Source: a phage. Taken from it: a DNA stretch of 35,820 nt. The notes under the pieces were generated by a model, which saw only the letters and a list, made by a program, of their open reading frames with translations, did not search any database and was not told where the DNA came from. How positions within the stretch are numbered: the first letter of the stretch is position 1; every line of letters starts with the position of its first letter. Positions 2,027-16,920 of this stretch are shown here, in pieces. Position numbers and translations under genes: made by a program. The stretch is taken from assembly GCA_037431425.1 (NCBI GenBank), contig GCA_037431425.1_4129.3. One strand, 5' to 3'.

Positions 2027-2632
2027 ATGAAACTATTCTTGAAAGAGATTGTACAAACCGTTGTTTTAATCGCTGCATTAAATTTTCCAGCAGCGGCAGA
2101 AGTTTCAAAAAAAGCATCTGTTCTTCTATTAAATGAACAGGTTGTGTCAATGGATGGTGAACTAAATGATAATACGGTACAAGAAGTAGAGCAGTTGTGG
2201 AAAGAAAAAAGATTTAAAATTTTAACAATTACATCACCTGGGGGTGATTTTGATGCTGGTATTAAAATGGCAAATTTTGTTAGAGACAATGGTATAAATT
2301 TAATTGTTTCTAAATATTGCAATTCGGCATGTACTGTGGTATTCTTTAGTGTATCCCCAGAAAAGCGATATATGACAAATCAATCAGTACTGGGATTGCA
2401 TAATATTTCAATCAAAAGTAACGTTAAAGATATGGATCATACTTTCGTATCTGTTAGACAACTATCATCATTTACTGAAGAAATGGCAACAAAAGTAGGA
2501 TTTTTATTTACACTATATTCAGCTAATGGTATTCCACCTAGCATTCTATATAAAGTTAGTCGTTCACGTGGTGAAGATGTTGTTATCTTAACAAAAACAG
2601 ACCTAATAAATTACGGTTCAGTCAATCCATGA
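2027..2632 (+). CDS. Secreted ClpP/S49-like (crotonase-fold) peptidase homolog
   Basis: N-terminal signal-peptide-like segment; motif ILTITSPGGDFDAG resembling the ClpP INSPGG region, with a downstream His; the position aligning to the ClpP active-site Ser looks substituted (NSACTVV). SD GAGG 7 nt upstream. Confidence 0.45.
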   Translation: MKLFLKEIVQTVVLIAALNFPAAAEVSKKASVLLLNEQVVSMDGELNDNTVQEVEQLWKEKRFKILTITSPGGDFDAGIKMANFVRDNGINLIVSKYCNSACTVVFFSVSPEKRYMTNQSVLGLHNISIKSNVKDMDHTFVSVRQLSSFTEEMATKVGFLFTLYSANGIPPSILYKVSRSRGEDVVILTKTDLINYGSVNP

Positions 2633-2700
2633 AAATAATTATAATAACAGGATGATTATGTTGTTCTTCCTTTGTTATTAACTATATCGGAAATATAACC

Positions 2701-2961
2701 ATGACAAACATCCAGAATTTGACATCTATTATTTTTTATGCTACAGTGGTGATATATGCTATTGTACTTATTTTAACAGTTTTTATATACAAAGATTACA
2801 AAAAAGGCTTTATTAATAGCACAACAATCAAGTTCAATTCTAAATTTAAAGAAATTATATTTTATGTTTTGACAACATCATATTTGTTGTGTATATTGTT
2901 ACTAGGGCCATTGATTTATATTTTATATACAACATTATTTGCAATTGGAGCTATTTTATGA
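2701..2961 (+). CDS. Small hydrophobic membrane protein
   Basis: 86-aa ORF with predicted TM helices; stop overlaps the next start (ATGA). Confidence 0.45.
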   Translation: MTNIQNLTSIIFYATVVIYAIVLILTVFIYKDYKKGFINSTTIKFNSKFKEIIFYVLTTSYLLCILLLGPLIYILYTTLFAIGAIL

Positions 2962-3554
2962 CATGTATTATTGCATACACTGACGGTGTAACTTCATTTA
3001 TTGCAGGGGACAAGATGGGGAGTGATGGTTTTACGAAATCAATCCAAACAGAGCCGAAAGTATTTGAGAAAGAATTCGTAAAGATTAGTGGTGATGACGG
3101 CTTGACTCGTACAAAAGATGTTATGACTTTTGGATTCACTACATCATTTCGTATGGGTCAACTGCTAACTTACAATTTAAATTTACCAGACCAAAATTCA
3201 AATGAGACGTTTCTACAGTATTTAGTACTGAAAGTTATTCCTCTTATTCGTCAAATGTTTAAAGACGAATGGGGTGCACGTGATACAACACAAGATGTTG
3301 GTGGTGGTCAATTTATTATTTTACACAATCATACGATTTATGAAATTCAGGAAGATTTTTCGGTTCTCCAGTCAAAATCAAGAGTTGCATCTGTTGGTAG
3401 TGGTACATATCATGCAATTGCAGCGATGCAAGCATACATTGAACTCGAAAAAGAAACTAACGTACAACTTCATGAACGTATCAAATCTATTTTCAAAATT
3501 GTCAGTGATAATGTGTCGAGTGTAAGTGAAGAGTTTGATGTATTAAAATATTAA
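2958..3554 (+). CDS. HslV/proteasome-beta-like Ntn-hydrolase peptidase
   Basis: Start at internal ATG 2958 gives MTCIIAYTDGVTSFIAGDKMG (compare HslV MTTIVSV..GHVVIAGDGQ, Thr2 nucleophile) and C-terminal VASVGSGTYHAIAAMQAYIE (HslV IAIGSGGPYAQAAARALLE). The track ORF starts earlier at 2889; ATGA overlap with the upstream ORF supports 2958. Confidence 0.65.
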   Translation: MTCIIAYTDGVTSFIAGDKMGSDGFTKSIQTEPKVFEKEFVKISGDDGLTRTKDVMTFGFTTSFRMGQLLTYNLNLPDQNSNETFLQYLVLKVIPLIRQMFKDEWGARDTTQDVGGGQFIILHNHTIYEIQEDFSVLQSKSRVASVGSGTYHAIAAMQAYIELEKETNVQLHERIKSIFKIVSDNVSSVSEEFDVLKY

Positions 3555-3569
3555 AATTATAAGAGAGAA

Positions 3570-3764
3570 ATGATGGCATACACAATTTATGAATGGATTT
3601 TGAGTTTTATTATAGTATTTTTTATGGTTGTAATTTACAATAATGCTAAATGCTTATATAGAGATTTAAAATCCAATGGTTATCATGCAAACAATAATTT
3701 AATGTATGCCTATCATATTGGAATCATTCTATTATTATCAATATATTTAATTGGTTTTATATAA
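3570..3764 (+). CDS. Small membrane protein
   Basis: 64-aa hydrophobic ORF with AGAGAG upstream. Confidence 0.45.
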   Translation: MMAYTIYEWILSFIIVFFMVVIYNNAKCLYRDLKSNGYHANNNLMYAYHIGIILLLSIYLIGFI

Positions 3765-3773
3765 GGATTACGT

Positions 3774-4526
3774 ATGATATCAGAAAAATTCATAAGTAAT
3801 GAGGGAAACAAGAGATTACTTATCATCTCAGGAGCAGGTCTTTCCGTTGAAAGTGGTATGGACCCATTTCGTTTCGATGATGGCCTATGGGATACATTTA
3901 AAATTAATGATGTATGTAATATTGCAAATTTAGATACAAAATATCATATTGTTCATTCGTTTTATAACACGCTGCGTGTTAAACTGGGTCAATGTGAACC
4001 AAATGCAATGCATTATTTTATAAAATCATTAGAGGAACAATATGGTGATTGTTTCCTTCATATGACTTCAAATATGGATGATCTTTACACCCGTATTGGC
4101 GGTAAAGAACTTAAACTTCATGGTAATTTATGTGAAGTGATAGAAAATTATAGTATTAATGGTGATGATTACAACATTGTTAACTGTGGTTATGAGCCAT
4201 ATATCCCAAAACATGATATTTTTGCTAAACCAAATGTAGTGATGATTGGTGAGTATCATCGTTATGTGGATGGTGTACGCCTACCAATATATGAAGAACG
4301 AAATAATGTCTTGAAATCCCTTGATGAAAATGATACAGTTATTGTTATTGGTAGCAGCGATACTGTTCTTGTATGGTCCCGATTGGTAGCATCATTGCCA
4401 TGTTATAGTGTCAATGTTAATATTAGAAAGAATGATAATGATTTTTTGTTTAATGAAAAAATTATCAAGCCAGCAACCAAAGCAATACCACAACTAGAGA
4501 CTATAATTAAGGAACGTATGAAATGA
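3774..4526 (+). CDS. Sir2-family (sirtuin-like) NAD+-dependent deacylase/NADase
   Basis: Sirtuin motifs GAGLS (GAGxS), TSNMD (TQNxD-like) and LHGN (HG); SD AAGGA upstream; only two Cys in the usual zinc-module position. Confidence 0.8.
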   Translation: MISEKFISNEGNKRLLIISGAGLSVESGMDPFRFDDGLWDTFKINDVCNIANLDTKYHIVHSFYNTLRVKLGQCEPNAMHYFIKSLEEQYGDCFLHMTSNMDDLYTRIGGKELKLHGNLCEVIENYSINGDDYNIVNCGYEPYIPKHDIFAKPNVVMIGEYHRYVDGVRLPIYEERNNVLKSLDENDTVIVIGSSDTVLVWSRLVASLPCYSVNVNIRKNDNDFLFNEKIIKPATKAIPQLETIIKERMK

Positions 4527-5074
4527 GTGTTAAAGAAGTTCCCTTTGGTGAATATGGTTCACGTGCAAATTTTGTATTCTGCTATTTCTTTGCAAGAGGA
4601 TGTAATCCCTACGAAAACTATGAGTTGAATGATATACCAGAAGTAAATTTAGTATTACTTCAACTACGATGGGATGGCCTTCTGGGTGGATGTGGTGGTA
4701 CAGTTGAAAGTACTGATATCTCATTAGAAGATGCGTTGCGTCGTGAAATACAAGAAGAAATGAACTACTATATTTTTGTTTCTCACTTAAAACCACTTAA
4801 AACGTTTGAAATTTACCCAGGTGCAAACAGTCATAGTTTCAGTTATGAAGTAACATATGATGAGTTAAAATACATTCGTGATGGGTATACAACTGCCAAA
4901 CATGCAAGTGCCGAAGTTGCTGGTGTAAATTTATGTCATATTTCTCGTTATTCTAAGGGACAAAATCGAGAAGCGGGATATAATAATCTTATGACACAGA
5001 ACTTCATCGGTACAGCAAAACACGAATTAGCGTATCTGGTACAAAAAGAGAACTTACTAATTAGCTATCTATAG
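4523..5074 (+). CDS. Nudix-like hydrolase (NudE-like, putative)
   Basis: GGTVESTDISLEDALRREIQEEMN resembles the Nudix box (REUxEE core), with atypical spacing between the Glu and RE; start overlaps the Sir2 stop (ATGA). Confidence 0.5.
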   Translation: MSVKEVPFGEYGSRANFVFCYFFARGCNPYENYELNDIPEVNLVLLQLRWDGLLGGCGGTVESTDISLEDALRREIQEEMNYYIFVSHLKPLKTFEIYPGANSHSFSYEVTYDELKYIRDGYTTAKHASAEVAGVNLCHISRYSKGQNREAGYNNLMTQNFIGTAKHELAYLVQKENLLISYL

Positions 5075-5084
5075 GAGTTTAAAA

Positions 5085-5405
5085 ATGTCTTACTCTATGT
5101 TTTTGGATGACATTCGTGATGCAAAACAATATTACCCTAATCAAGATATGGTAGTATGTCGTGATTTTAACAGTGCGTGTGAATATGTTGTTAAAAATGG
5201 AATTCCAGCATTTGTATCATTTGACCATGACTTGGGTGATATGAGTGGAGACGAAAAAACTGGATATTCTTTTGCTAAATTTCTTATTGATTATATGTTT
5301 GATAATAATATTAAAGAACCGTTTGAGTACTTTGTGCACAGTAGTAATCCAGTTGGTAAAGTTAACATTGAAACATACTTAAACAATGGATTTAATGCAT
5401 TATGA
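5085..5405 (+). CDS. Hypothetical protein, possibly a CheY/REC-like fold
   Basis: ORF with AGGAG SD; receiver-like spacing of acidic/Asp/Ser/Lys residues (FLDD..., VSFDHDLG, HSSNP, GK); weak. Confidence 0.5.
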   Translation: MSYSMFLDDIRDAKQYYPNQDMVVCRDFNSACEYVVKNGIPAFVSFDHDLGDMSGDEKTGYSFAKFLIDYMFDNNIKEPFEYFVHSSNPVGKVNIETYLNNGFNAL

Positions 5406-5704
5406 TTCAAACACATATTAAAAGTATCATTTGCACTATACTACTAGGTGTAGGAGTTCTATGGTTCAGTAATTATCACGAGAACACTAAGCGTACAAAT
5501 ATTCACTATAATACCGCAGAAGTTGTAAGTTTAGGACAATGTAGTGAGTCCAAATGTTCGTTCATGTACAAAACCAGTAATGGTGAAGTACGTAATGGAC
5601 TATCTAGTGAACCAGTTTCGATTGGTCAACTTGTTTACCAGGAGTGCTGGGAAGAAAAGGTTCGAGGTTCACGATGTTATGTTGAATACGAACCAAAAAT
5701 GTAA
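5402..5704 (+). CDS. Hypothetical membrane-anchored Cys-containing protein
   Basis: ATGA-coupled ORF; N-terminal hydrophobic helix. Confidence 0.5.
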   Translation: MIQTHIKSIICTILLGVGVLWFSNYHENTKRTNIHYNTAEVVSLGQCSESKCSFMYKTSNGEVRNGLSSEPVSIGQLVYQECWEEKVRGSRCYVEYEPKM

Positions 5705-5767
5705 TAATAACATGAGTCAATAATAATAGCCGGGTACAAGGATGTACTCACAATTCAAGGATGTTTT

Positions 5768-7207
5768 ATGAAAAAATATACAATTGACACAAACGTACTA
5801 CTATCTGATCCAAATGCATCTGTTGCTTTTGATGGTGCTGCAATCATTCTACCATTTACAGTACTGGAAGAATTGGATTCGATTAAGAGTCGCAATGTTG
5901 ATGTTTCACGTGATGCTCGTGTTGCGATTCGTAACATTGAAGCAATTATTGCAGAGGCATCACATAATGAGATTAGTTGTACTGGTGTTAATATTGCTGA
6001 TGTTCATACCAATATGAGTCCTGAAAGCAAATTGTTTGTTATTACAAACGAAGAAGCTGAAGCACTAATTCGTACTAAGGCAATTGAAGATAAAGTTCAA
6101 ACACTTCTCAAAAGTTCTGTACCAGATGATAAAATTATCTTAGTCGCTTTAGCAACTGATTCAGTACTGGTTACCCGTGATATCAATATGCGTATCAAGG
6201 CTCTTAGTTATGGAGTTGAAGTACAGGATTATCGTCATGATGTGGTTATCGGTGATAGCGATCTAATGCACGTAGGTCAACATCATCTCGATATCGATTT
6301 CTGGGCAGAATTCAGTGGGATTGAAAATGCTGAAATTAAATCTGAAAAAACAGGTCGCCGCCTGTATCATTATATCCCAACACATCTAATCAAAGATCTT
6401 CTTCCACAAAATCTTTGTATTGGTGACTATCTATATGATAATGCTGATGTGCTCTTTGTTTACGAAGGTCAGTCTGCAATCGAAGAAGATGATGGTAGTC
6501 TAACACCAGAAGATATTTTGGTCTTCCAAGATATTGGTCAATCTGTTGCATTACGTGCTAATGTATGGGATATTAAAGCGAAGAATGTCAAACAAGCACT
6601 AGCTATTAATAGTATTCTCGATCCCGATGTACATCTAACAGTTCTACTAGGTTCTGCTGGGACGGGCAAAACACTAATTACGATTGCTACTGCACTAGAG
6701 TTAGTTCTGGAAAAACGTAAATACGACCGTATTATCTTCTCTAAAACACAAGATTCACAGTTTGAAGATATCGGATTCTTGCCTGGTTCAGAGGCCGAGA
6801 AAGTGATTCCATTTTGTGGTCCAGCGATTGACGCACTAGAGTACCTACATAAAGATGATGCAAATCCACAAGGTAGCATTGAGGAAATCATGAAACGTAA
6901 TGTTATCCAGTTCAAAGCATTGAACTTTATTCGTGGTCGTTCTTTTGCCAATACAATTCTAATTGTGGATGAAGCACAGAACTTAACACCAGCCCAGCTA
7001 AAAACTGTCTTGACAAGAGCCGGAGAAAACTGTAAAGTAATCATACTTGGTAACCTAGCACAGATCGATAACAAGTTTATCAGTCCAGTAAACAGCGGTC
7101 TAACTTATGTAACTGAGAAATTTAAAAATTGGTCTGGTTGTCGTATCATTGAATTGGAAGGTGTTGTTCGTTCACCACTTGCTGAATTTGCTGAAGAAAA
7201 TATGTAA
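5768..7207 (+). CDS. phoH: PIN-domain / PhoH-like ATPase fusion (PhoH2/YlaK-type)
   Basis: N-terminal PIN-like YTIDTNVLL...; Walker A LGSAGTGKT; PhoH-like IVDEAQNLT and GNLAQID; SD AAGGA upstream. Confidence 0.85.
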   Translation: MKKYTIDTNVLLSDPNASVAFDGAAIILPFTVLEELDSIKSRNVDVSRDARVAIRNIEAIIAEASHNEISCTGVNIADVHTNMSPESKLFVITNEEAEALIRTKAIEDKVQTLLKSSVPDDKIILVALATDSVLVTRDINMRIKALSYGVEVQDYRHDVVIGDSDLMHVGQHHLDIDFWAEFSGIENAEIKSEKTGRRLYHYIPTHLIKDLLPQNLCIGDYLYDNADVLFVYEGQSAIEEDDGSLTPEDILVFQDIGQSVALRANVWDIKAKNVKQALAINSILDPDVHLTVLLGSAGTGKTLITIATALELVLEKRKYDRIIFSKTQDSQFEDIGFLPGSEAEKVIPFCGPAIDALEYLHKDDANPQGSIEEIMKRNVIQFKALNFIRGRSFANTILIVDEAQNLTPAQLKTVLTRAGENCKVIILGNLAQIDNKFISPVNSGLTYVTEKFKNWSGCRIIELEGVVRSPLAEFAEENM

Positions 7208-7480: not shown

Positions 7481-7582
7481 TACATTTGAAGTAATATTAT
7501 GGGGTTCTTAATAAATAACATTATAAGAATAATAATACTTTTTATTAAATTAAAAAGAACTCCATGTGTTATTTCAGTTTTT

Positions 7583-7610
7583 ATCCCTGTCGGTTGGCAG
7601 GGATTTTTTC
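7583..7610 (+). terminator. Rho-independent terminator
   Basis: ATCCCTG-tcggttgg-CAGGGAT followed by TTTTTT. Confidence 0.65.
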
Positions 7611-7705
7611 TATCTATGTATTGACAAAAGGATTAATTTATGAGAACATGTATAAAAGGCCGTATGACATTCCATTAGGTTATTTTTAACTTAAAGGAGA
7701 TATAT

Positions 7706-8263
7706 ATGTTTTTTGACCAAACATTTACGTTGTACCATGATTCTGGTAAAGTTGAGATTATTGAAAATCTATTACAGTACATTGCAGATCATGATGGTGT
7801 TGAACGTTTCCATAGTAAGATGAAATTCGATTTAGCTGAATTCAACAAAAAGAATCGTGAAACTTTTTGGAAGAACCGATTCTATTATGAAATGTTTCCA
7901 GAAAGGTTTGTTGGTTATTATCTTTGTACTGAGAAAGGTTTATTAGTATCTCCAGATTTACTTATGGGTGAATACATGGTTCTCTATAATGAGTACTGGA
8001 AAAATAAACGTAACGCTCGTGACATTGAGTGGAGACATAAGCGTTCGTACATGTACAAACACAACCACTCCCGATACAAACGTCCTAAGACTCAACAAGA
8101 GCGTCGTATGGCGTGTGCAGTACTGAAGGACGAGGGGGAACCTGAAATACGTGGAAGACGTAAGATGCGTTCATTACCATCGTATTGGAACGATATCAGA
8201 ACAAGACATAGTACCGGATGGAAATACAGTACTAAGCGTAAAAAACAATACAAAGGGGGCTAA
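7706..8263 (+). CDS. Hypothetical protein with highly basic C-terminus
   Basis: ORF with AAGGAG SD; Arg/Lys-rich tail. Confidence 0.6.
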   Translation: MFFDQTFTLYHDSGKVEIIENLLQYIADHDGVERFHSKMKFDLAEFNKKNRETFWKNRFYYEMFPERFVGYYLCTEKGLLVSPDLLMGEYMVLYNEYWKNKRNARDIEWRHKRSYMYKHNHSRYKRPKTQQERRMACAVLKDEGEPEIRGRRKMRSLPSYWNDIRTRHSTGWKYSTKRKKQYKGG

Positions 8264-10152: not shown

Positions 10153-10767
10153 ATGACTACATCTGAAAAGTACTGGTGGATTTTGGGCCATCCTAAATTC
10201 ATCAACGGAGATATGGTTCCCCCAAGGATTGATATCGAACCACATGATGTGTGTCCAATCACAAACCGCATTGAATCATTTAAAGCTCTGAATACAAAGA
10301 CACAATTTTGGGTAGAATTCATCTCACCTATGTACGTTGAGCAAGATGATGAATGGGTACAAGCACATGATTATGAGTTAGATTGCGGTGGTGATACTTA
10401 TGATGAGGCAATTGACGCACTATACAAAAATGTGCTAAACACTTATGGTGATTACACCCAACAAGAAGCAGACGATACGTTTAATAAGATCCATGCAGCC
10501 ATTTCTACATCATCAATTTACAATCCAGCAAAAACAGTTTGGGAAGAACGTCACGGGTGGAGTTCATCTGTAATTGATGCAGAAGCCAAAGAAACAATTC
10601 TCGAAGACATAAAAAATATAAAAAGTACAATAGAAGCCTTGCGTGAATTTATAAAGTCTTGTACAATAGAACAACAGAAAGAGGCAAAGATGCATTTGGA
10701 AAGTGAAGAATGTAAACTTTGGGTTCTAGAGAAATCTATTGAAAAGGGTATAGACTTAGACTTATGA
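10153..10767 (+). CDS. Hypothetical acidic protein
   Basis: ORF with GGAG SD. Confidence 0.55.
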   Translation: MTTSEKYWWILGHPKFINGDMVPPRIDIEPHDVCPITNRIESFKALNTKTQFWVEFISPMYVEQDDEWVQAHDYELDCGGDTYDEAIDALYKNVLNTYGDYTQQEADDTFNKIHAAISTSSIYNPAKTVWEERHGWSSSVIDAEAKETILEDIKNIKSTIEALREFIKSCTIEQQKEAKMHLESEECKLWVLEKSIEKGIDLDL

Positions 10768-11132
10768 ATAGTAAATTGGAGAAATTAATCGAAGAATTAC
10801 GCCAGATGCCGCCGATTGAACAAGTAGGTAATTATAAACGGTATCGTATTATTGCTCGTGCACTTGATAAAAAAGGTAGAGTACTGGCAACTCGCACAAA
10901 TTCTTATACACAGACTCACCCTAAGCAGAAAAACTTTGCAGTTAAAGCTGGAAGAAATGATGCAATATGGTTACATGCTGAAATAAGCTGTTTACTCGCA
11001 GCAAGGGCTGATGTTCACACATTATTAATTGCACGGGTTAGTAAAGATGGAATTCCCGTTTCTGCAAAACCATGTGAAATTTGCTCTTTAGCAATACAAG
11101 AATACGGAGTAGTTGAAGTAATACATACATAG
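10764..11132 (+). CDS. CDA-fold zinc-dependent deaminase-like protein
   Basis: HAE (LHAEISCLL) and PCxxC (KPCEICS) zinc-ligand motifs; ATGA coupling. Confidence 0.55.
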   Translation: MNSKLEKLIEELRQMPPIEQVGNYKRYRIIARALDKKGRVLATRTNSYTQTHPKQKNFAVKAGRNDAIWLHAEISCLLAARADVHTLLIARVSKDGIPVSAKPCEICSLAIQEYGVVEVIHT

Positions 11133-11145
11133 GTAGAATATTTTC

Positions 11146-12222
11146 ATGGAAGAAATAAAAAAAGAATTAAATCAATTTAATGAATACGTATATAATTTGT
11201 ATTTTAATAAAAATATTATTTTTACTTGGATGAAACCTGAAGATATAAAGTATATAAAAACATCATCATCAAGTAAATCTCCATTTTACTTTGAAAAATT
11301 AATACTCAATAAATCATTTTCAAATTATCATTTTGAATTTCTTGGTTTTAATATAAAAAAATCAGATGATTGGATAGGAAAGCTTACAAATATAGTAATT
11401 AAGTTGAATGATATAATATATATACGTAACATAAAATCTTTTTTGGAGATGCCTGTGACTCTCAAGCGTGTCCCATATGTGATTCATAATTCTAATAATA
11501 TTAGTTACTATTTAAACAAATACAATAAAAATTTAAAATATATAAATTGTATGTATGATAAAATCAATGAAAAAACTTATTTAGATTTACAATGTAAAAT
11601 ATGTGGTTATGAATATAAATCATGTTTAAACAATATTAAACATAGAAGTACAGATTGTCCTGGTTGTATGAATAATGTTGTATTATCTGAAGATGATATG
11701 TTATATAGAATAACATTGAAATTATATACACAACCACATATAAAATTATTAAATTTCAACTATAATAACGGTGGTAATAAGAATGCAATAGGTACATATT
11801 ATTGTGAAATACACAATTATACATGGGATTCTATGTATTTTGGGACAATTGCAAAAGATCAAAGTTGTAAACTTTGTATGCAAGGTCAATCTAAAGGTGA
11901 AAAATATATCACTGAAATATTGGATAATTTAAAGGTAAATTATATAAGAGAATATAAATTTGATAAATGTTTTAATCAAAGAAAATTACCTTTTGATTTT
12001 TATATTCCAGATTTCAATTTATGTATAGAATATGATGGAAGACAACACTTTGAATCTGTGGATTTTTATGGTGGAAACGATGCTTTTTTTATAAGAAAAA
12101 AGAATGATGAAATAAAAAATTCATTCTGTGAAAATAATAATATTACATTATTAAGATTTAATGATCTCAATTTTTCTCGTATTGAATCAACATTGAATAG
12201 AATACTAAAAAGTGTTAAATAA
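11146..12222 (+). CDS. Putative free-standing homing-type endonuclease (Cys-pair zinc-finger region + DUF559/Vsr-like nuclease C-terminus)
   Basis: Much more AT-rich than neighbours; several CxxC pairs; C-terminal ...FDFYIPDFNLCIEYDGRQHFE...ITLLRF resembling the DUF559 restriction-endonuclease-like signature. Confidence 0.5.
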   Translation: MEEIKKELNQFNEYVYNLYFNKNIIFTWMKPEDIKYIKTSSSSKSPFYFEKLILNKSFSNYHFEFLGFNIKKSDDWIGKLTNIVIKLNDIIYIRNIKSFLEMPVTLKRVPYVIHNSNNISYYLNKYNKNLKYINCMYDKINEKTYLDLQCKICGYEYKSCLNNIKHRSTDCPGCMNNVVLSEDDMLYRITLKLYTQPHIKLLNFNYNNGGNKNAIGTYYCEIHNYTWDSMYFGTIAKDQSCKLCMQGQSKGEKYITEILDNLKVNYIREYKFDKCFNQRKLPFDFYIPDFNLCIEYDGRQHFESVDFYGGNDAFFIRKKNDEIKNSFCENNNITLLRFNDLNFSRIESTLNRILKSVK

Positions 12223-13629: not shown

Positions 13630-13732
13630 ACTTGTCATAGGGTGTAGTGCAATTGCTGCATATATGATTTTTTCACCTCCAACCAATGTATTACTGCTAA
13701 TTTGGGCGGTTGTTATATTAGCAGTACTTTAA
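13616..13732 (+). CDS. Possible 38-aa hydrophobic peptide
   Basis: Not in the track; ATG 13616 overlaps the upstream 3' end; ends at TAA just before a terminator. Confidence 0.25.
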   Translation: MRLAKLVIGCSAIAAYMIFSPPTNVLLLIWAVVILAVL

Positions 13733-13765
13733 AGCACCCCATAGTGGGTGTTTTTCTTTTTTTTG
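13731..13765 (+). terminator. Rho-independent terminator
   Basis: GC-rich hairpin (GCACCC...GGGTG) followed by a long T-run. Confidence 0.55.
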
Positions 13766-13898
13766 TACAAATAAAAAGCAATGTCTCAATTCCTTGATAT
13801 AGGTCAAGAGAAATAACCAGCTATTACGCTATAATGCTTTCTGTTGTTGTTAAATAACTTCACCCCCAGATGATTTCAAAAAATACAAGGAGTGTACT

Positions 13899-15704
13899 GT
13901 GCAATTGAATAAATTATACACGGACGTAACGAATTTTCTAAACCAGAGTAATACTGATCTTACAAATGAAAACGCAAATAAAGATGCCAAATGTGTAAAT
14001 ACACACAGAGATTTACTTGCTGGTATCTTATCTAAACATTATTCACAAGATGTTATTCCAAAGGATCTAATGCAGTGGCACAATGATGGATATGGTCACA
14101 TTCATGATTTGGACTACTATATTAGTCCATTAACAAACTGTTGTTTGGTTAATTATCCAGATATGCTTAAACATGGGTTTACTATCGGGTGTGCTAAAAT
14201 CGAAGAACCAAAGAGTTTTAGTGTAGCATGTACGGTGCTAACACAGATTGTACAAGCTGTTGCAAGTTCCCAATATGGTGGTCAATCGTTGGCTCACATT
14301 GATGTCGGATTGGAACCTTATGTACAAAAGTCTTGGGAAAAGTTATTAGAAAAACAAAAGAAATATAATCTAAGCGATGATTTTATTGAAGAAGAATTAC
14401 GAAAAGAAGTATATGATGGGTGTCAAACATTACTATATCAGACCAATTCAATGATTAGCACTAATGGACAAGCTGCATTCATTTCTCTTAGTTTAGGACT
14501 TAATACTTCCAAATTTGGAAAATTAATCACTGAACAGTACTTGAAAGTTCACGAGAATGGTTTAGGTAAAGATAAGATTACACCAGTGTTTCCTAAAGTT
14601 ATTTTCTTTCTACAAGATGGTATTAACATGAATGTCAATGATAGTAATTATGATCTTAAACAGTTAGCTATGCGTTGTGCATCAAAAAGAATCTATCCAG
14701 ATTTTGTTTCAGTACCATTAAATCATAAAGTGACGGGAAGTAGTAGCACTGCGGTAACACCGATGGGCTGTCGTTCATTCTTAGGAAAATGGGAAGATTC
14801 AAATGGAAATGAACAATACAACGGTCGCTTCAATTTAGGTGTAGTTTCTATCAATTTACCACTAATTGCTCTTGAAAGTGCCTCAGATGGAGAGTTTTTT
14901 GATAAAATAGACGAGCATATGAATATTGCATATCGTGCTCAGATGAACCGCGTAGAGCGTTTAAAAGGTACAAAAGCGAAACAGAATCCAATTTTGTTTA
15001 TGGAAGGTGCATTAGCACGTTTAAGTGCAGAAGAAACTATTGACAAGCTATTTTACAATGGTTATGCTAGTATTAGTATTGGTTATGTTGGACTTGTTGA
15101 ATGTTCGGAAATCCTCACTGGTTCTATCAGTAAGGAGTTTTGTATGTCAGTACTGAATTATATGAAAGTAAAATGCGATGAGTTCAAAAAAGAAAGTAAT
15201 ATTGCTTTTAGTCTATATGGAACTCCAGCAGAGTCGCTTTGTTATAAATTTGCACGTTGCATTGAAGCAAAATATCCTTCAGTTCTCAAACGAGATTTCA
15301 TTACAAATTCATTCCATCAACCAGTATGGGTTGAAAGTTCCGCTTTTGAAAAGTGGGATTATGAGGAAAACTTTGCGTATCTAAGCAATGGTGGGAATAT
15401 TAGCTATGTTGAAACACCAAACCTGGCTAATAATATACAAGCACTTGAAACATTGATCAATTATGCATATGATAAAATTCCATATTTTGGAATTAATCAG
15501 AAAGTAGATAAGTGTTTTGAATGTAATTTTGAGGGAGAATTTAGTGTAGATAAAAATGGTTTTCATTGCCCTGTATGTAATAACAGAAATGAGCGAACAA
15601 TGTCTGTTATACGTAGGGTATCTGGATATCTTAGTGCACCAAATAGTCGCCCGTTTAATAAAGGTAAACAAGCTGAAGTAATTCAGCGTATACAGCATAT
15701 GTAA
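13899..15704 (+). CDS. nrdD: Anaerobic ribonucleoside-triphosphate reductase (class III RNR)
   Basis: 601 aa; C-terminal glycyl-radical motif RRVSGYLS and zinc-ribbon CFECNF...CPVCNN; overall layout as in T4 NrdD; GTG start with AAGGAG 6 nt upstream; no intron interruption. Confidence 0.9.
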
Positions 15705-15715
15705 GGAGATATATT

Positions 15716-16078
15716 ATGTCAATTCAAGGTAAACAAGTAATGTCAGGTGAGCACATCGGAACCATCATGCTGGTGGATAATGATATTGCACGTATTATTG
15801 TATCTAAAACATTTTCAGAAAATGATGAAGTTCTTTTGAGTACTTTTGACGGCGAAGAACTTCGTGACGTTCAGGTTAAACATGAACCTGGTATTGAAGG
15901 TGGTCAGCATTTGAATGTAAATGTTCTATCTAAAGAACAACTCATTGATGCACAAAATAACCCTGAAAAGTATCCACAGCTTACTATTCGTGTTAGTGGT
16001 TATGCAGTACGTTTCAATTCACTAACAAAAGAACAACAAGATGATGTAATTTCTCGTACATTCACAAAAGAACTATGA
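15716..16078 (+). CDS. grcA: GrcA/YfiD-like autonomous glycyl-radical cofactor
   Basis: 120 aa; [10 protein letters not shown] and [22 protein letters not shown] closely match E. coli GrcA; SD AAGGAG. Confidence 0.8.
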
Positions 16079-16404
16079 TGGATTTAAAACCAATTGTAGT
16101 GAACAAATACAAAGAACCGTATGATGTGTACATTGGTCGTGGGTCTAAATGGGGTAACCCATTTACCCATATCAATGATAAACAGACAAAAGCCGAATTC
16201 ATTGTTGCTACAAGGGAAGAATCAATTGAAAAATTCCGAGAATACATTATTGACCGTATTTCTAATGGCGAAATTAAAATTGATGATTTACTTGAATTAG
16301 CAGGTAAACGTCTTGGATGTTTCTGCAAACCAAAATCATGTCACGGCGATGTTCTTGTTGAAATAGTGAGTGCAATATTAGATGAATTACCAGACGATAA
16401 TTAA
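16075..16404 (+). CDS. Conserved phage protein resembling the DUF4326 family
   Basis: [15 protein letters not shown] and [13 protein letters not shown] motifs as I recall them for that family; ATGA coupling. Confidence 0.5.
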
Positions 16405-16861
16405 AGATGACCTTATTAATGGTGAGGGGGTGAGGTGCTCCCTTTTTGTTAGTGGGTGTAGCCATTGTTGTGCCAAATGCTTCAACGAAAAGGCATGGGA
16501 TTATAGAAGTGGCCAAGAGTTCAGTACTGAAACAATTGATATAATTTTAGCTGAACTCAGTAAACCGTACATTAGTGGGTTATCACTACTTGGTGGAGAT
16601 CCACTAATGAAAAAGAACATCGAAACAATTTTAGAACTATGTAAAATTGTAAAAGATACTTATCCAAATAAAACTATTTGGTGCTGGAGTGGGTATACTT
16701 TAGAAGAGATTATGGATAATCATGCATCTCCAATACTGGAGTACATAGATGTATTGGTTGATGGTAAATTCATAGAAGCAGAAAAGAATTTAGAATTACC
16801 ATTTAGAGGCTCTAATAATCAACGTATTCTTCGCAAAGGCGTAGATTATGCATTATCTTGA
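16382..16861 (+). CDS. nrdG: Anaerobic RNR activating enzyme (radical SAM)
   Basis: N-terminal IINGEGVRCSLFVSGCSHCCAKCFN (CxxxCxxC cluster); ~159 aa. Confidence 0.85.
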   Translation: MNYQTIIKDDLINGEGVRCSLFVSGCSHCCAKCFNEKAWDYRSGQEFSTETIDIILAELSKPYISGLSLLGGDPLMKKNIETILELCKIVKDTYPNKTIWCWSGYTLEEIMDNHASPILEYIDVLVDGKFIEAEKNLELPFRGSNNQRILRKGVDYALS

Positions 16862-16889
16862 TATTACAGAAATGTGGAAATATATGAAG

Positions 16890-16913
16890 AAGCACCCTTT
16901 GGGTGCTTTTTTT
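16890..16913 (+). terminator. Rho-independent terminator
   Basis: AAGCACCC-ttt-GGGTGCTT followed by TTTTTTT. Confidence 0.75.
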
Positions 16914-16920
16914 ATAATAT

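Follow-up and report, generated by a model that had tools for sequence, protein, structure and literature searches.

Two small glycyl-radical proteins have been described as spare parts for pyruvate formate-lyase (PFL): YfiD (GrcA) of Escherichia coli, and the Y06I protein of bacteriophage T4, the validated spare part of Wagner et al. 2001, which is encoded by T4 gene vs.6. Both are radicalised by the PFL-activating enzyme (PFL-AE) and rescue PFL that has been cleaved by O2 (PMC8683613). Formate, the product of PFL, has a use in DNA-precursor synthesis as well, in that NrdD of T4 and of E. coli, like the class III reductase of L. lactis, consumes it as reductant (PMC4390871, PMC4493059). Here we describe a phage locus in which a gene of the GrcA type is enclosed between nrdD and nrdG. 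It occupies positions 13899-16861 of a stretch of 35,820 nucleotides (GenBank assembly GCA_037431425.1, contig GCA_037431425.1_4129.3), which we refer to as the window. The source of this DNA is an Asteriusvirus jumbo phage; the segment 13800-16900 shares 99.9% identity with the 348-kb genome of Escherichia phage ph0011, and 82-90% with some 35 further Asteriusvirus-like genomes. An earlier note on the window had read the gene order as nrdD, a 120-aa GrcA-like gene, a DUF4326-like gene and nrdG, and had suggested that the arrangement serves a coordinated anaerobic nucleotide supply. The order was borne out by the open reading frame (ORF) listing and by profile searches, which placed four closely packed ORFs on the + strand at these positions. 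We propose, with a probability of about 0.65 and largely by analogy with the systems named above, that the phage protein would rescue host PFL, that the rescued enzyme would supply formate to phage NrdD, and that the four genes would be co-expressed as one operon under control of the host regulator FNR.

The small gene (15716..16078, + strand) was recognized as a homologue of T4 vs.6/Y06I through Pfam, PHROG, a structure match and alignments. Its product matched Pfam Gly_radical (E=1e-17), the C-terminus of E. coli PflB (E=4.7e-30) and the solution structure of E. coli GrcA (PDB 6OWR; E=3.8e-31, residues 12-120 against 14-127), and it matched PHROG 1209 over the full length (E=1.6e-50, residues 4-120 of 121). 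We observed in a joint alignment that its radical glycine, Gly95 (codon 15998-16000), stands opposite Gly102 of GrcA and Gly735 of PflB (counted with the initiator Met; Gly734 in the literature). The earlier note had singled out such an alignment beforehand as the check that could overturn its assignment, and the glycine fell within the GrcA/PFL context; also, the T4 homologue which that note mentioned as a spare part corresponds to Y06I (PMC8683613). Gly95 lies within a run of 27 residues identical to E. coli PflB, and the loop RVSGYAV is of the PFL type; over the last 60 residues, E. coli GrcA, PflB and T4 Vs.6 each have 48 identities with the window protein. The gene is a standalone ORF with its own Shine-Dalgarno sequence, start and stop, and not the C-terminus of a larger enzyme. 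Ratios of nonsynonymous to synonymous substitution (dN/dS) of 0.12-0.25 relative to the homologues of TH47, Munch, Muenster and Serratia BF are those of a gene under purifying selection. A single-sequence AlphaFold2 (AF2) model reached a mean predicted local distance difference test (pLDDT) score of 35, which is too low to use. By these sequence criteria, we judge the 120-aa product to be a phage-type GrcA, orthologous to T4 Vs.6/Y06I, and a predicted free-standing copy of the C-terminal glycyl-radical domain of PFL.

The window protein and T4 Vs.6 are alike in several respects: both have 120 residues with the radical glycine at position 95, both match PHROG 1209, they are 60% identical overall, and they have in common the PFL-identical loop and a phage-type N-terminal motif, GTI...ARIIVSKTF, of which the ARIIVSKTF portion is lacking from E. 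coli GrcA. They differ in their C-terminal 60 residues, which in T4 are near-identical to E. coli GrcA (LTPEQQRDVIARTFTESL) whereas those of the jumbo-phage proteins are PflB-like, and also in genomic setting, the T4 gene being located ~17 kb from nrdD/nrdG among the vs/regB genes whereas the window gene is inside an nrdDG operon. E. coli GrcA/YfiD, too, is a standalone small protein that copies the PFL radical domain, and it is 57% identical overall to the window protein; the latter is 7 residues shorter, diverges in its N-terminal half (20/59 identical), and is virus-encoded in one operon with ribonucleotide reductase. The mini spare parts GrcA3 and GrcA2 (NF038360, NF008341; ~78-80 aa) have the radical loop RVSGYAV and the C-terminal helix in common with the window protein, but they are without the whole N-terminal half, and their loop continues as NFIKL rather than RFNSL.

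Some side observations on the family can be recorded here. Within its last 60 residues T4 Vs.6 (locus 7558-7920) differs from E. coli GrcA (locus 221-604) at one position, while its N-terminal half is of the phage type, a pattern that suggests past gene conversion of vs.6 with host grcA; the jumbo-phage GrcAs, unlike T4 Vs.6, carry the PflB-like residues LTKEQQ. One locus (L022, 3911-6183) encodes a PflB-like body, residues 11-687 of which are 62% identical to E. coli PflB, and then, in another reading frame, a separate 78-aa GrcA3 ORF in place of the enzyme's own radical domain; the locus may encode a PFL that is split by nature, or it may contain a frameshift. In Serratia phage BF, a 56-aa ORF between nrdD and grcA (locus 2830-3000) begins MIQYVITEGIHTGTIF, like the N-terminus of phage GrcA, and may be a duplication remnant.

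As the earlier note had stated, NrdD of the window already has a glycyl-radical domain of its own (RRVSGYLS, residues 572-579, with Gly576 at codon 15624-15626), which raises the matter of the enzyme that the spare part would serve. With the C-terminus of this NrdD, phage GrcA has only RVSGY in common, that is, 5 contiguous residues compared with the 27 found for PflB, and over the last 125 residues of NrdD the two proteins were 20% identical (112 aligned positions). Moreover, phage GrcA contains no cysteine, whereas the NrdD radical loop is built on a four-Cys CX2C...CX2C zinc ribbon. Because phage GrcA copies the PFL domain, and because a spare part must fit the barrel that it repairs, host PflB rather than NrdD is the expected partner; by analogy with T4 Y06I, host PflA would be the expected activase. 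We presume that TdcE could be a further host partner.

The same comparisons bear on a different assignment, namely that phage GrcA is a spare radical domain for phage NrdD, and/or that it is loaded by the co-encoded NrdG instead of, or besides, host PflA. The location of grcA between nrdD and nrdG, with apparent translational coupling, would suit this assignment, as would the presence of RVSGY in the window NrdD in place of the TCGY of T4, and the existence of spare parts for glycyl radical enzymes other than PFL is a question left open in PMC8683613. However, the short common run, the 20% identity and the missing cysteines of a zinc ribbon on which the NrdD radical domain is built all argue in the other direction, and spare parts are known solely for formate lyases according to a 2026 review. 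We consider the assignment very improbable. Were NrdG to load the radical onto phage GrcA, the operon would carry its own complete means of radical delivery, and were NrdD the patched enzyme, it would be the first glycyl radical enzyme besides PFL for which a spare part is known.

The reductase encoded by nrdD (13899..15704, + strand; 601 aa) is a T4-like class III (anaerobic) enzyme, as judged from the ORF listing, Pfam, NCBIfam and an alignment with the T4 NrdD structure 1H78. It matched Pfam NRDD (E=1.2e-164) and Gly_radical, it scored above the curated NCBIfam cut-offs (770 versus 657 for NF006732, and 532 versus 326 for TIGR02487), and it aligned end to end with 1H78 (E=8.5e-165); it is without an ATP-cone. 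Counterparts of T4 Cys79, Met288, Cys290, the CX2C-X14-CX2C zinc ribbon and Gly580 are retained, the key residues in the window protein being Cys81 (NCC), Met289 and Cys291 (PMGC), Cys539/542/557/560 (Zn site) and Gly576. The roles of such residues, including those of the thiyl Cys on the finger loop, of the Met located two residues before this thiyl Cys, and of the second Cys, are described in PMC4493059. From its similarity to T4 NrdD, we infer that the window enzyme is of the formate-using T4/E. coli type.

On this basis the following sequence of events can be proposed. Host PflA would place a radical on Gly95 of phage GrcA, as predicted from homology to YfiD and Y06I; the activated protein would then dock onto host PflB whose radical domain has been cleaved by oxygen, and PFL activity would be restored. 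The restored enzyme would supply formate, phage NrdD would take it as reductant, and the anaerobic supply of deoxyribonucleoside triphosphates would be kept running in microaerobic hosts. Expression from a class II FNR-activated promoter would mean that the phage reads the host oxygen sensor, and that the four genes would be expressed only at low oxygen. A 2026 review mentions that PFL-derived formate may be consumed by formate-dependent class III ribonucleotide reductase; our literature search returned no paper proposing a PFL-formate-NrdD link for phage GrcA. Judged from homology and the literature, formate appears to be the simplest and most likely link to explain the presence of grcA inside an nrd operon.

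The association of grcA with nrdD and nrdG is not confined to the window. Searches by tblastn found grcA homologues in 1,595 phage records, mostly as T4-like 'vs.6', with many named 'autonomous glycyl radical cofactor'. The order is nrdD-grcA-nrdG in Salmonella phage Munch (without the DUF4326 gene), nrdD-grcA-NrdA.1-like-nrdG in Klebsiella phages Muenster and RaK2, and nrdD-grcA-...-nrdG with extra ORFs in Serratia phage BF and Yersinia phage fHe-Yen9-04; in phage BF three additional ORFs separate nrdD from grcA, and a different ORF precedes nrdG. These RaK2-like jumbo phages (Muenster, RaK2, K64-1, Munch, BF and fHe-Yen9-04) resemble the window in gene order and in the FNR box upstream of nrdD, their GrcA proteins are 65-77% identical to that of the window, and the proteins already bear the name 'autonomous glycyl radical cofactor' in GenBank. 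Hence the placement in an nrd operon, to which the earlier note drew attention, is real but not peculiar to this phage, and not novel either, since both the gene family and the gene order are annotated already in related jumbo phages.

Linkage was also found in other phages. In Aeromonas phages 65 and Ah1 the order is nrdD-nrdG-vs.6-nrdC. We scanned IMG/VR twice and searched each of 93 loci for NrdD and NrdG within 6 kb. In four uncultured viral contigs (L012, L018, L019 and L025; around 5950-6200), a 78-aa protein of the GrcA3 type, which consists of the radical domain only, adjoins nrdD/nrdG, with the order nrdD-grcA3-nrdG in two and nrdD-nrdG-grcA3 in the other two; their NrdD proteins are 33-39% identical to that of the window. 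Nine further contigs with the same mini protein had no nrd gene within 6 kb of it. Adjacency at a scale of ~1 kb that recurs in several lineages, in differing gene orders and in genomes of 100-350 kb, would be unlikely if grcA and nrdDG had nothing to do with each other.

We turn now to the region upstream of nrdD, where a sequence with the features of an FNR-activated promoter is located. The FNR consensus is TTGATnnnnATCAA, and the site is centered at -41.5 +/- 4 in most FNR-activated promoters, the class II geometry, in which a -10 hexamer but no -35 element is required (PMC3688515). In the window, the sequence TTGATATAGGTCAA (13794..13807, + strand) matches 9 of the 10 consensus bases of TTGAT-N4-ATCAA, and a putative -10 hexamer, TATAAT, can be read 22 nt after it (13830..13835, + strand), a gap that would center the box at approximately -41.5. 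The same position is occupied by TTGATATAGGTCAA in PBECO4, by TTGATATAGATCAA in TH47, by TTGATCTAGATCAA in Munch, Serratia BF and fHe-Yen9-04, and by TTGATTTAAATCAA in Muenster and RaK2; the boxes of TH47, Munch, Muenster/RaK2, Serratia BF and fHe-Yen9-04 are perfect. Thus the box is present in all 7 of the aligned jumbo-phage sequences, which represent four genera (Asteriusvirus, Munch type, Alcyoneusvirus and Eneladusvirus), and it forms an island of invariant alignment columns between diverged flanks, with the -10 hexamer 22-23 nt away. There is one FNR box only in each jumbo-phage locus of 7-12 kb. The promoter of E. coli grcA/yfiD has a like arrangement, TTGATTTAAATCAA followed after 22 nt by TATATA, and its box is identical to that of Muenster/RaK2. 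That promoter is a verified FNR class II promoter, and yfiD, focA-pflB and nrdD of the host are all FNR-activated (PMC3688515).

Farther downstream, a second conserved element, TAAATAACTTCACC (13851..13864, + strand), was recognized in the four-genus alignment. This block of the 5' untranslated region follows the putative nrdD promoter in the four jumbo-phage genera, with the pattern TAAATAAnT(C)nACC, and is unique in the window. A generic sigma-70 scan of the window gave 17 sites where 19 were expected, that is, no enrichment, and it missed the putative FNR promoter, which is without a -35 element. No paper was found in a literature search on FNR, jumbo phages and anaerobic conditions. Given the conserved box and its spacing, host FNR probably activates the phage operon when oxygen is low. 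The suggestion of a coordinated anaerobic nucleotide supply is strengthened by the recurrent linkage to nrdDG, the coupled unit and the conserved FNR-type promoter; it is at the same time refined, in that the expected partner of the spare part is host PFL and not NrdD, and the inferred link is formate.

Several observations weigh against this interpretation, and we gather them here. First, phage GrcA scored 129.5 bits with the NCBIfam equivalog model TIGR04365, below the cut-off of 170. In a calibration of this model, E. coli GrcA scored 233.9 and the validated T4 Vs.6 scored 151.1 bits, also below 170; because the validated protein falls short too, the shortfall has no bearing on function, and the cut-off divides bacterial from phage versions rather than dividing by function. 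Second, the FNR box of the window has one mismatch, and the one-mismatch pattern occurs 6 times in the window against an expectation of 5.7, which is no enrichment. A single mismatched box is therefore meaningless alone, and the case for FNR rests on conservation and geometry. Third, upstream of nrdD no FNR box was found in the nrdD-grcA loci of the Aeromonas phages or of the metagenomic contigs, and the T4 regions examined, those of nrdD and vs.6, were without one as well. Fourth, the T4-like and T5-like phages, which are far more numerous, have grcA more than 6 kb from nrdDG, as is the case for the T4 gene with its distance of ~17 kb. Fifth, most Asteriusvirus genomes are without grcA, as described below. 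Finally, the formate rationale is a proposal, and rescuing PFL could just as well benefit the energy metabolism of the host.

The last of these points can be put as an explanation in its own right: phage GrcA would rescue host PFL to sustain fermentative energy metabolism and the supply of acetyl-CoA during infection, and the nrd operon would merely offer an anaerobically induced promoter. The identity to the PFL C-terminus fits either explanation, an FNR-type promoter would suit any anaerobic function, and the separation of grcA from nrdDG in T4-like and T5-like phages is in keeping with a purpose apart from the reductase. On the other hand, grcA also adjoins nrdD/nrdG in lineages with other gene orders and without an FNR box, which points to a tie with the reductase itself and not with one promoter. 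We regard the energy explanation as unlikely, and favor the supply of formate to NrdD.

The distribution of grcA among close relatives of the window bears on whether the gene has any role tied to its neighbors. Among Asteriusvirus-like genomes, only ph0011, A4, TH47 and UE-S1 carry grcA; the PBECO4-type genomes, which are the majority, have DUF4326 directly after nrdD. Since most Asteriusvirus genomes lack it, grcA must be dispensable. Between the window and PBECO4, homology is lost 76 nt short of the nrdD stop and returns at the ATG of DUF4326. Also, the nrdD 3' ends are mosaic between genera, that of PBECO4 being like Munch and that of the window like Muenster. We considered a simple deletion of grcA in PBECO4, for which the junction fits (ATG...ATG microhomology), and set it aside as the sole account, the mosaic nrdD 3' ends making recombinational replacement as likely. 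By these comparisons, the presence or absence of grcA reflects either the loss of a short cassette or its replacement by recombination; the gene is conserved but dispensable.

Such a distribution, together with the break in homology to PBECO4 and the occupation of the same intergenic sites in TH47 by homing-endonuclease-like inserts, might be taken to mean that grcA is a dispensable passenger, with no role tied to its neighbors, which was shuffled in by recombination at an insertion hot spot. But its dN/dS is 0.12-0.25, its position is kept across four jumbo-phage groups, and the linkage to nrdDG recurs in other phages; we consider a mere passenger extremely unlikely. A gene that supports the co-encoded reductase by way of host PFL remains our preferred interpretation.

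The limits of the operon are well marked. To the left, an intrinsic terminator that closes the upstream unit (13731..13764, + strand) was found by a terminator scan and consists of a 9-bp GC-rich hairpin (-11.2 kcal/mol, RNAfold) followed by a U run. To the right, a terminator read from the sequence (16888..16918, + strand) consists of a hairpin of -16.8 kcal/mol (RNAfold) followed by U7; it was not picked up by the pattern scan, and folding confirmed it. Within these limits, 11 nt separate the nrdD stop from the grcA-like ATG, which is preceded by a GGAG Shine-Dalgarno site; the grcA-like stop and the DUF4326 start overlap as ATGA, and DUF4326 and nrdG overlap by 23 nt. From this layout we conclude that nrdD-grcA-DUF4326-nrdG is a single, terminator-bounded operon with predicted translational coupling. 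No Rfam family matched the whole window at gathering thresholds, hence no recognised riboswitch was found. The GenBank annotation of ph0011 has the same four genes, the small one being named 'pyruvate formate-lyase', and the papers on ph0011 and UE-S1 make no mention of them.

The start of nrdD is the GTG at 13899, in agreement with the earlier note. It is the first start codon following an in-frame stop, it lies 6 nt after a Shine-Dalgarno sequence, AAGGAG (13887..13892, + strand), and in the alignment it stands where PBECO4 and TH47 use an ATG. For PBECO4 gp076 (nrdD, locus 3035-4903), the RefSeq start is 63-64 nt upstream of this aligned ATG, which itself follows the conserved Shine-Dalgarno sequence, and the gene is probably annotated too long. 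The same note was right in that nrdD has no intron here, the gene being one uninterrupted ORF. In TH47 the gene is interrupted behind residue 314 by an insert of 1.17 kb (locus 2540-3712, equivalent to window 14840/14841) that encodes a 279-aa GIY-YIG homing-endonuclease-like ORF; Rfam searches of the TH47 nrd region at gathering thresholds gave no match, and hence no group I intron call for the insert. The T4 nrdD intron is at a different site, near residue 180.

The third gene (16075..16404, + strand; 109 aa) was assigned to the DUF4326 / T4 NrdA.1 family by Pfam (PF14216, E=3.2e-24; 85.8 bits against a gathering score of 25) and by tblastn, which found the family in 2,279 phage records, T4-type nrdA.1 among them. 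The family has the invariant motif C-x-C-x4-C-H-G-D. An AF2 model of the protein had a pLDDT of 90.9, and its comparison with solved structures found no structural relative. The fourth gene, nrdG (16382..16861, + strand; 159 aa), encodes the radical-SAM (S-adenosylmethionine) activase of NrdD, as assigned from the ORF listing, Pfam and TIGR02491 (195.2 against a cut-off of 126.1); its cluster motif CX3CX2C reads CSHCCAKC.

Some other features of the window deserve mention. Upstream neighbors within 3774-7207 encode a SIR2-family protein, a Nudix (Nudt16-like) protein and a PIN-PhoH fusion, an NAD/ADP-ribose-flavored neighborhood that may be relevant to what DUF4326 is predicted to do. The gene at 10764-11132 encodes a dCMP deaminase. 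The segment 11084-12225 is a 1.1-kb insert of 24% GC that is absent from ph0011 and contains a 358-aa ORF (11146-12222); upstream of the insert, flanking identity to ph0011 falls to 91.6%. The C-terminal 125 residues of this ORF are 39% identical to a 328-aa ORF of TH47 (locus 5426-6412) located between DUF4326 and nrdG. The 358-aa ORF had no Pfam match, and it resembles a free-standing mobile endonuclease family.

The biochemistry of spare parts is known from Y06I and YfiD, and what the present locus adds is context: the recurrent adjacency of grcA and nrdDG, a reductase of the formate type, and a conserved FNR-type promoter. The Asteriusvirus isolates offer a natural comparison, between those that carry grcA (ph0011, A4, TH47 and UE-S1) and those of the PBECO4 type that do not. 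If our interpretation is correct, a virulent phage would read the oxygen sensor of its host, and would safeguard a host enzyme whose product is the reductant with which the phage makes its DNA precursors anaerobically. The frequent presence of grcA in enterobacterial phages would then be explained, and there would be consequences for the low-oxygen replication of gut phages, including therapy candidates of Asteriusvirus.

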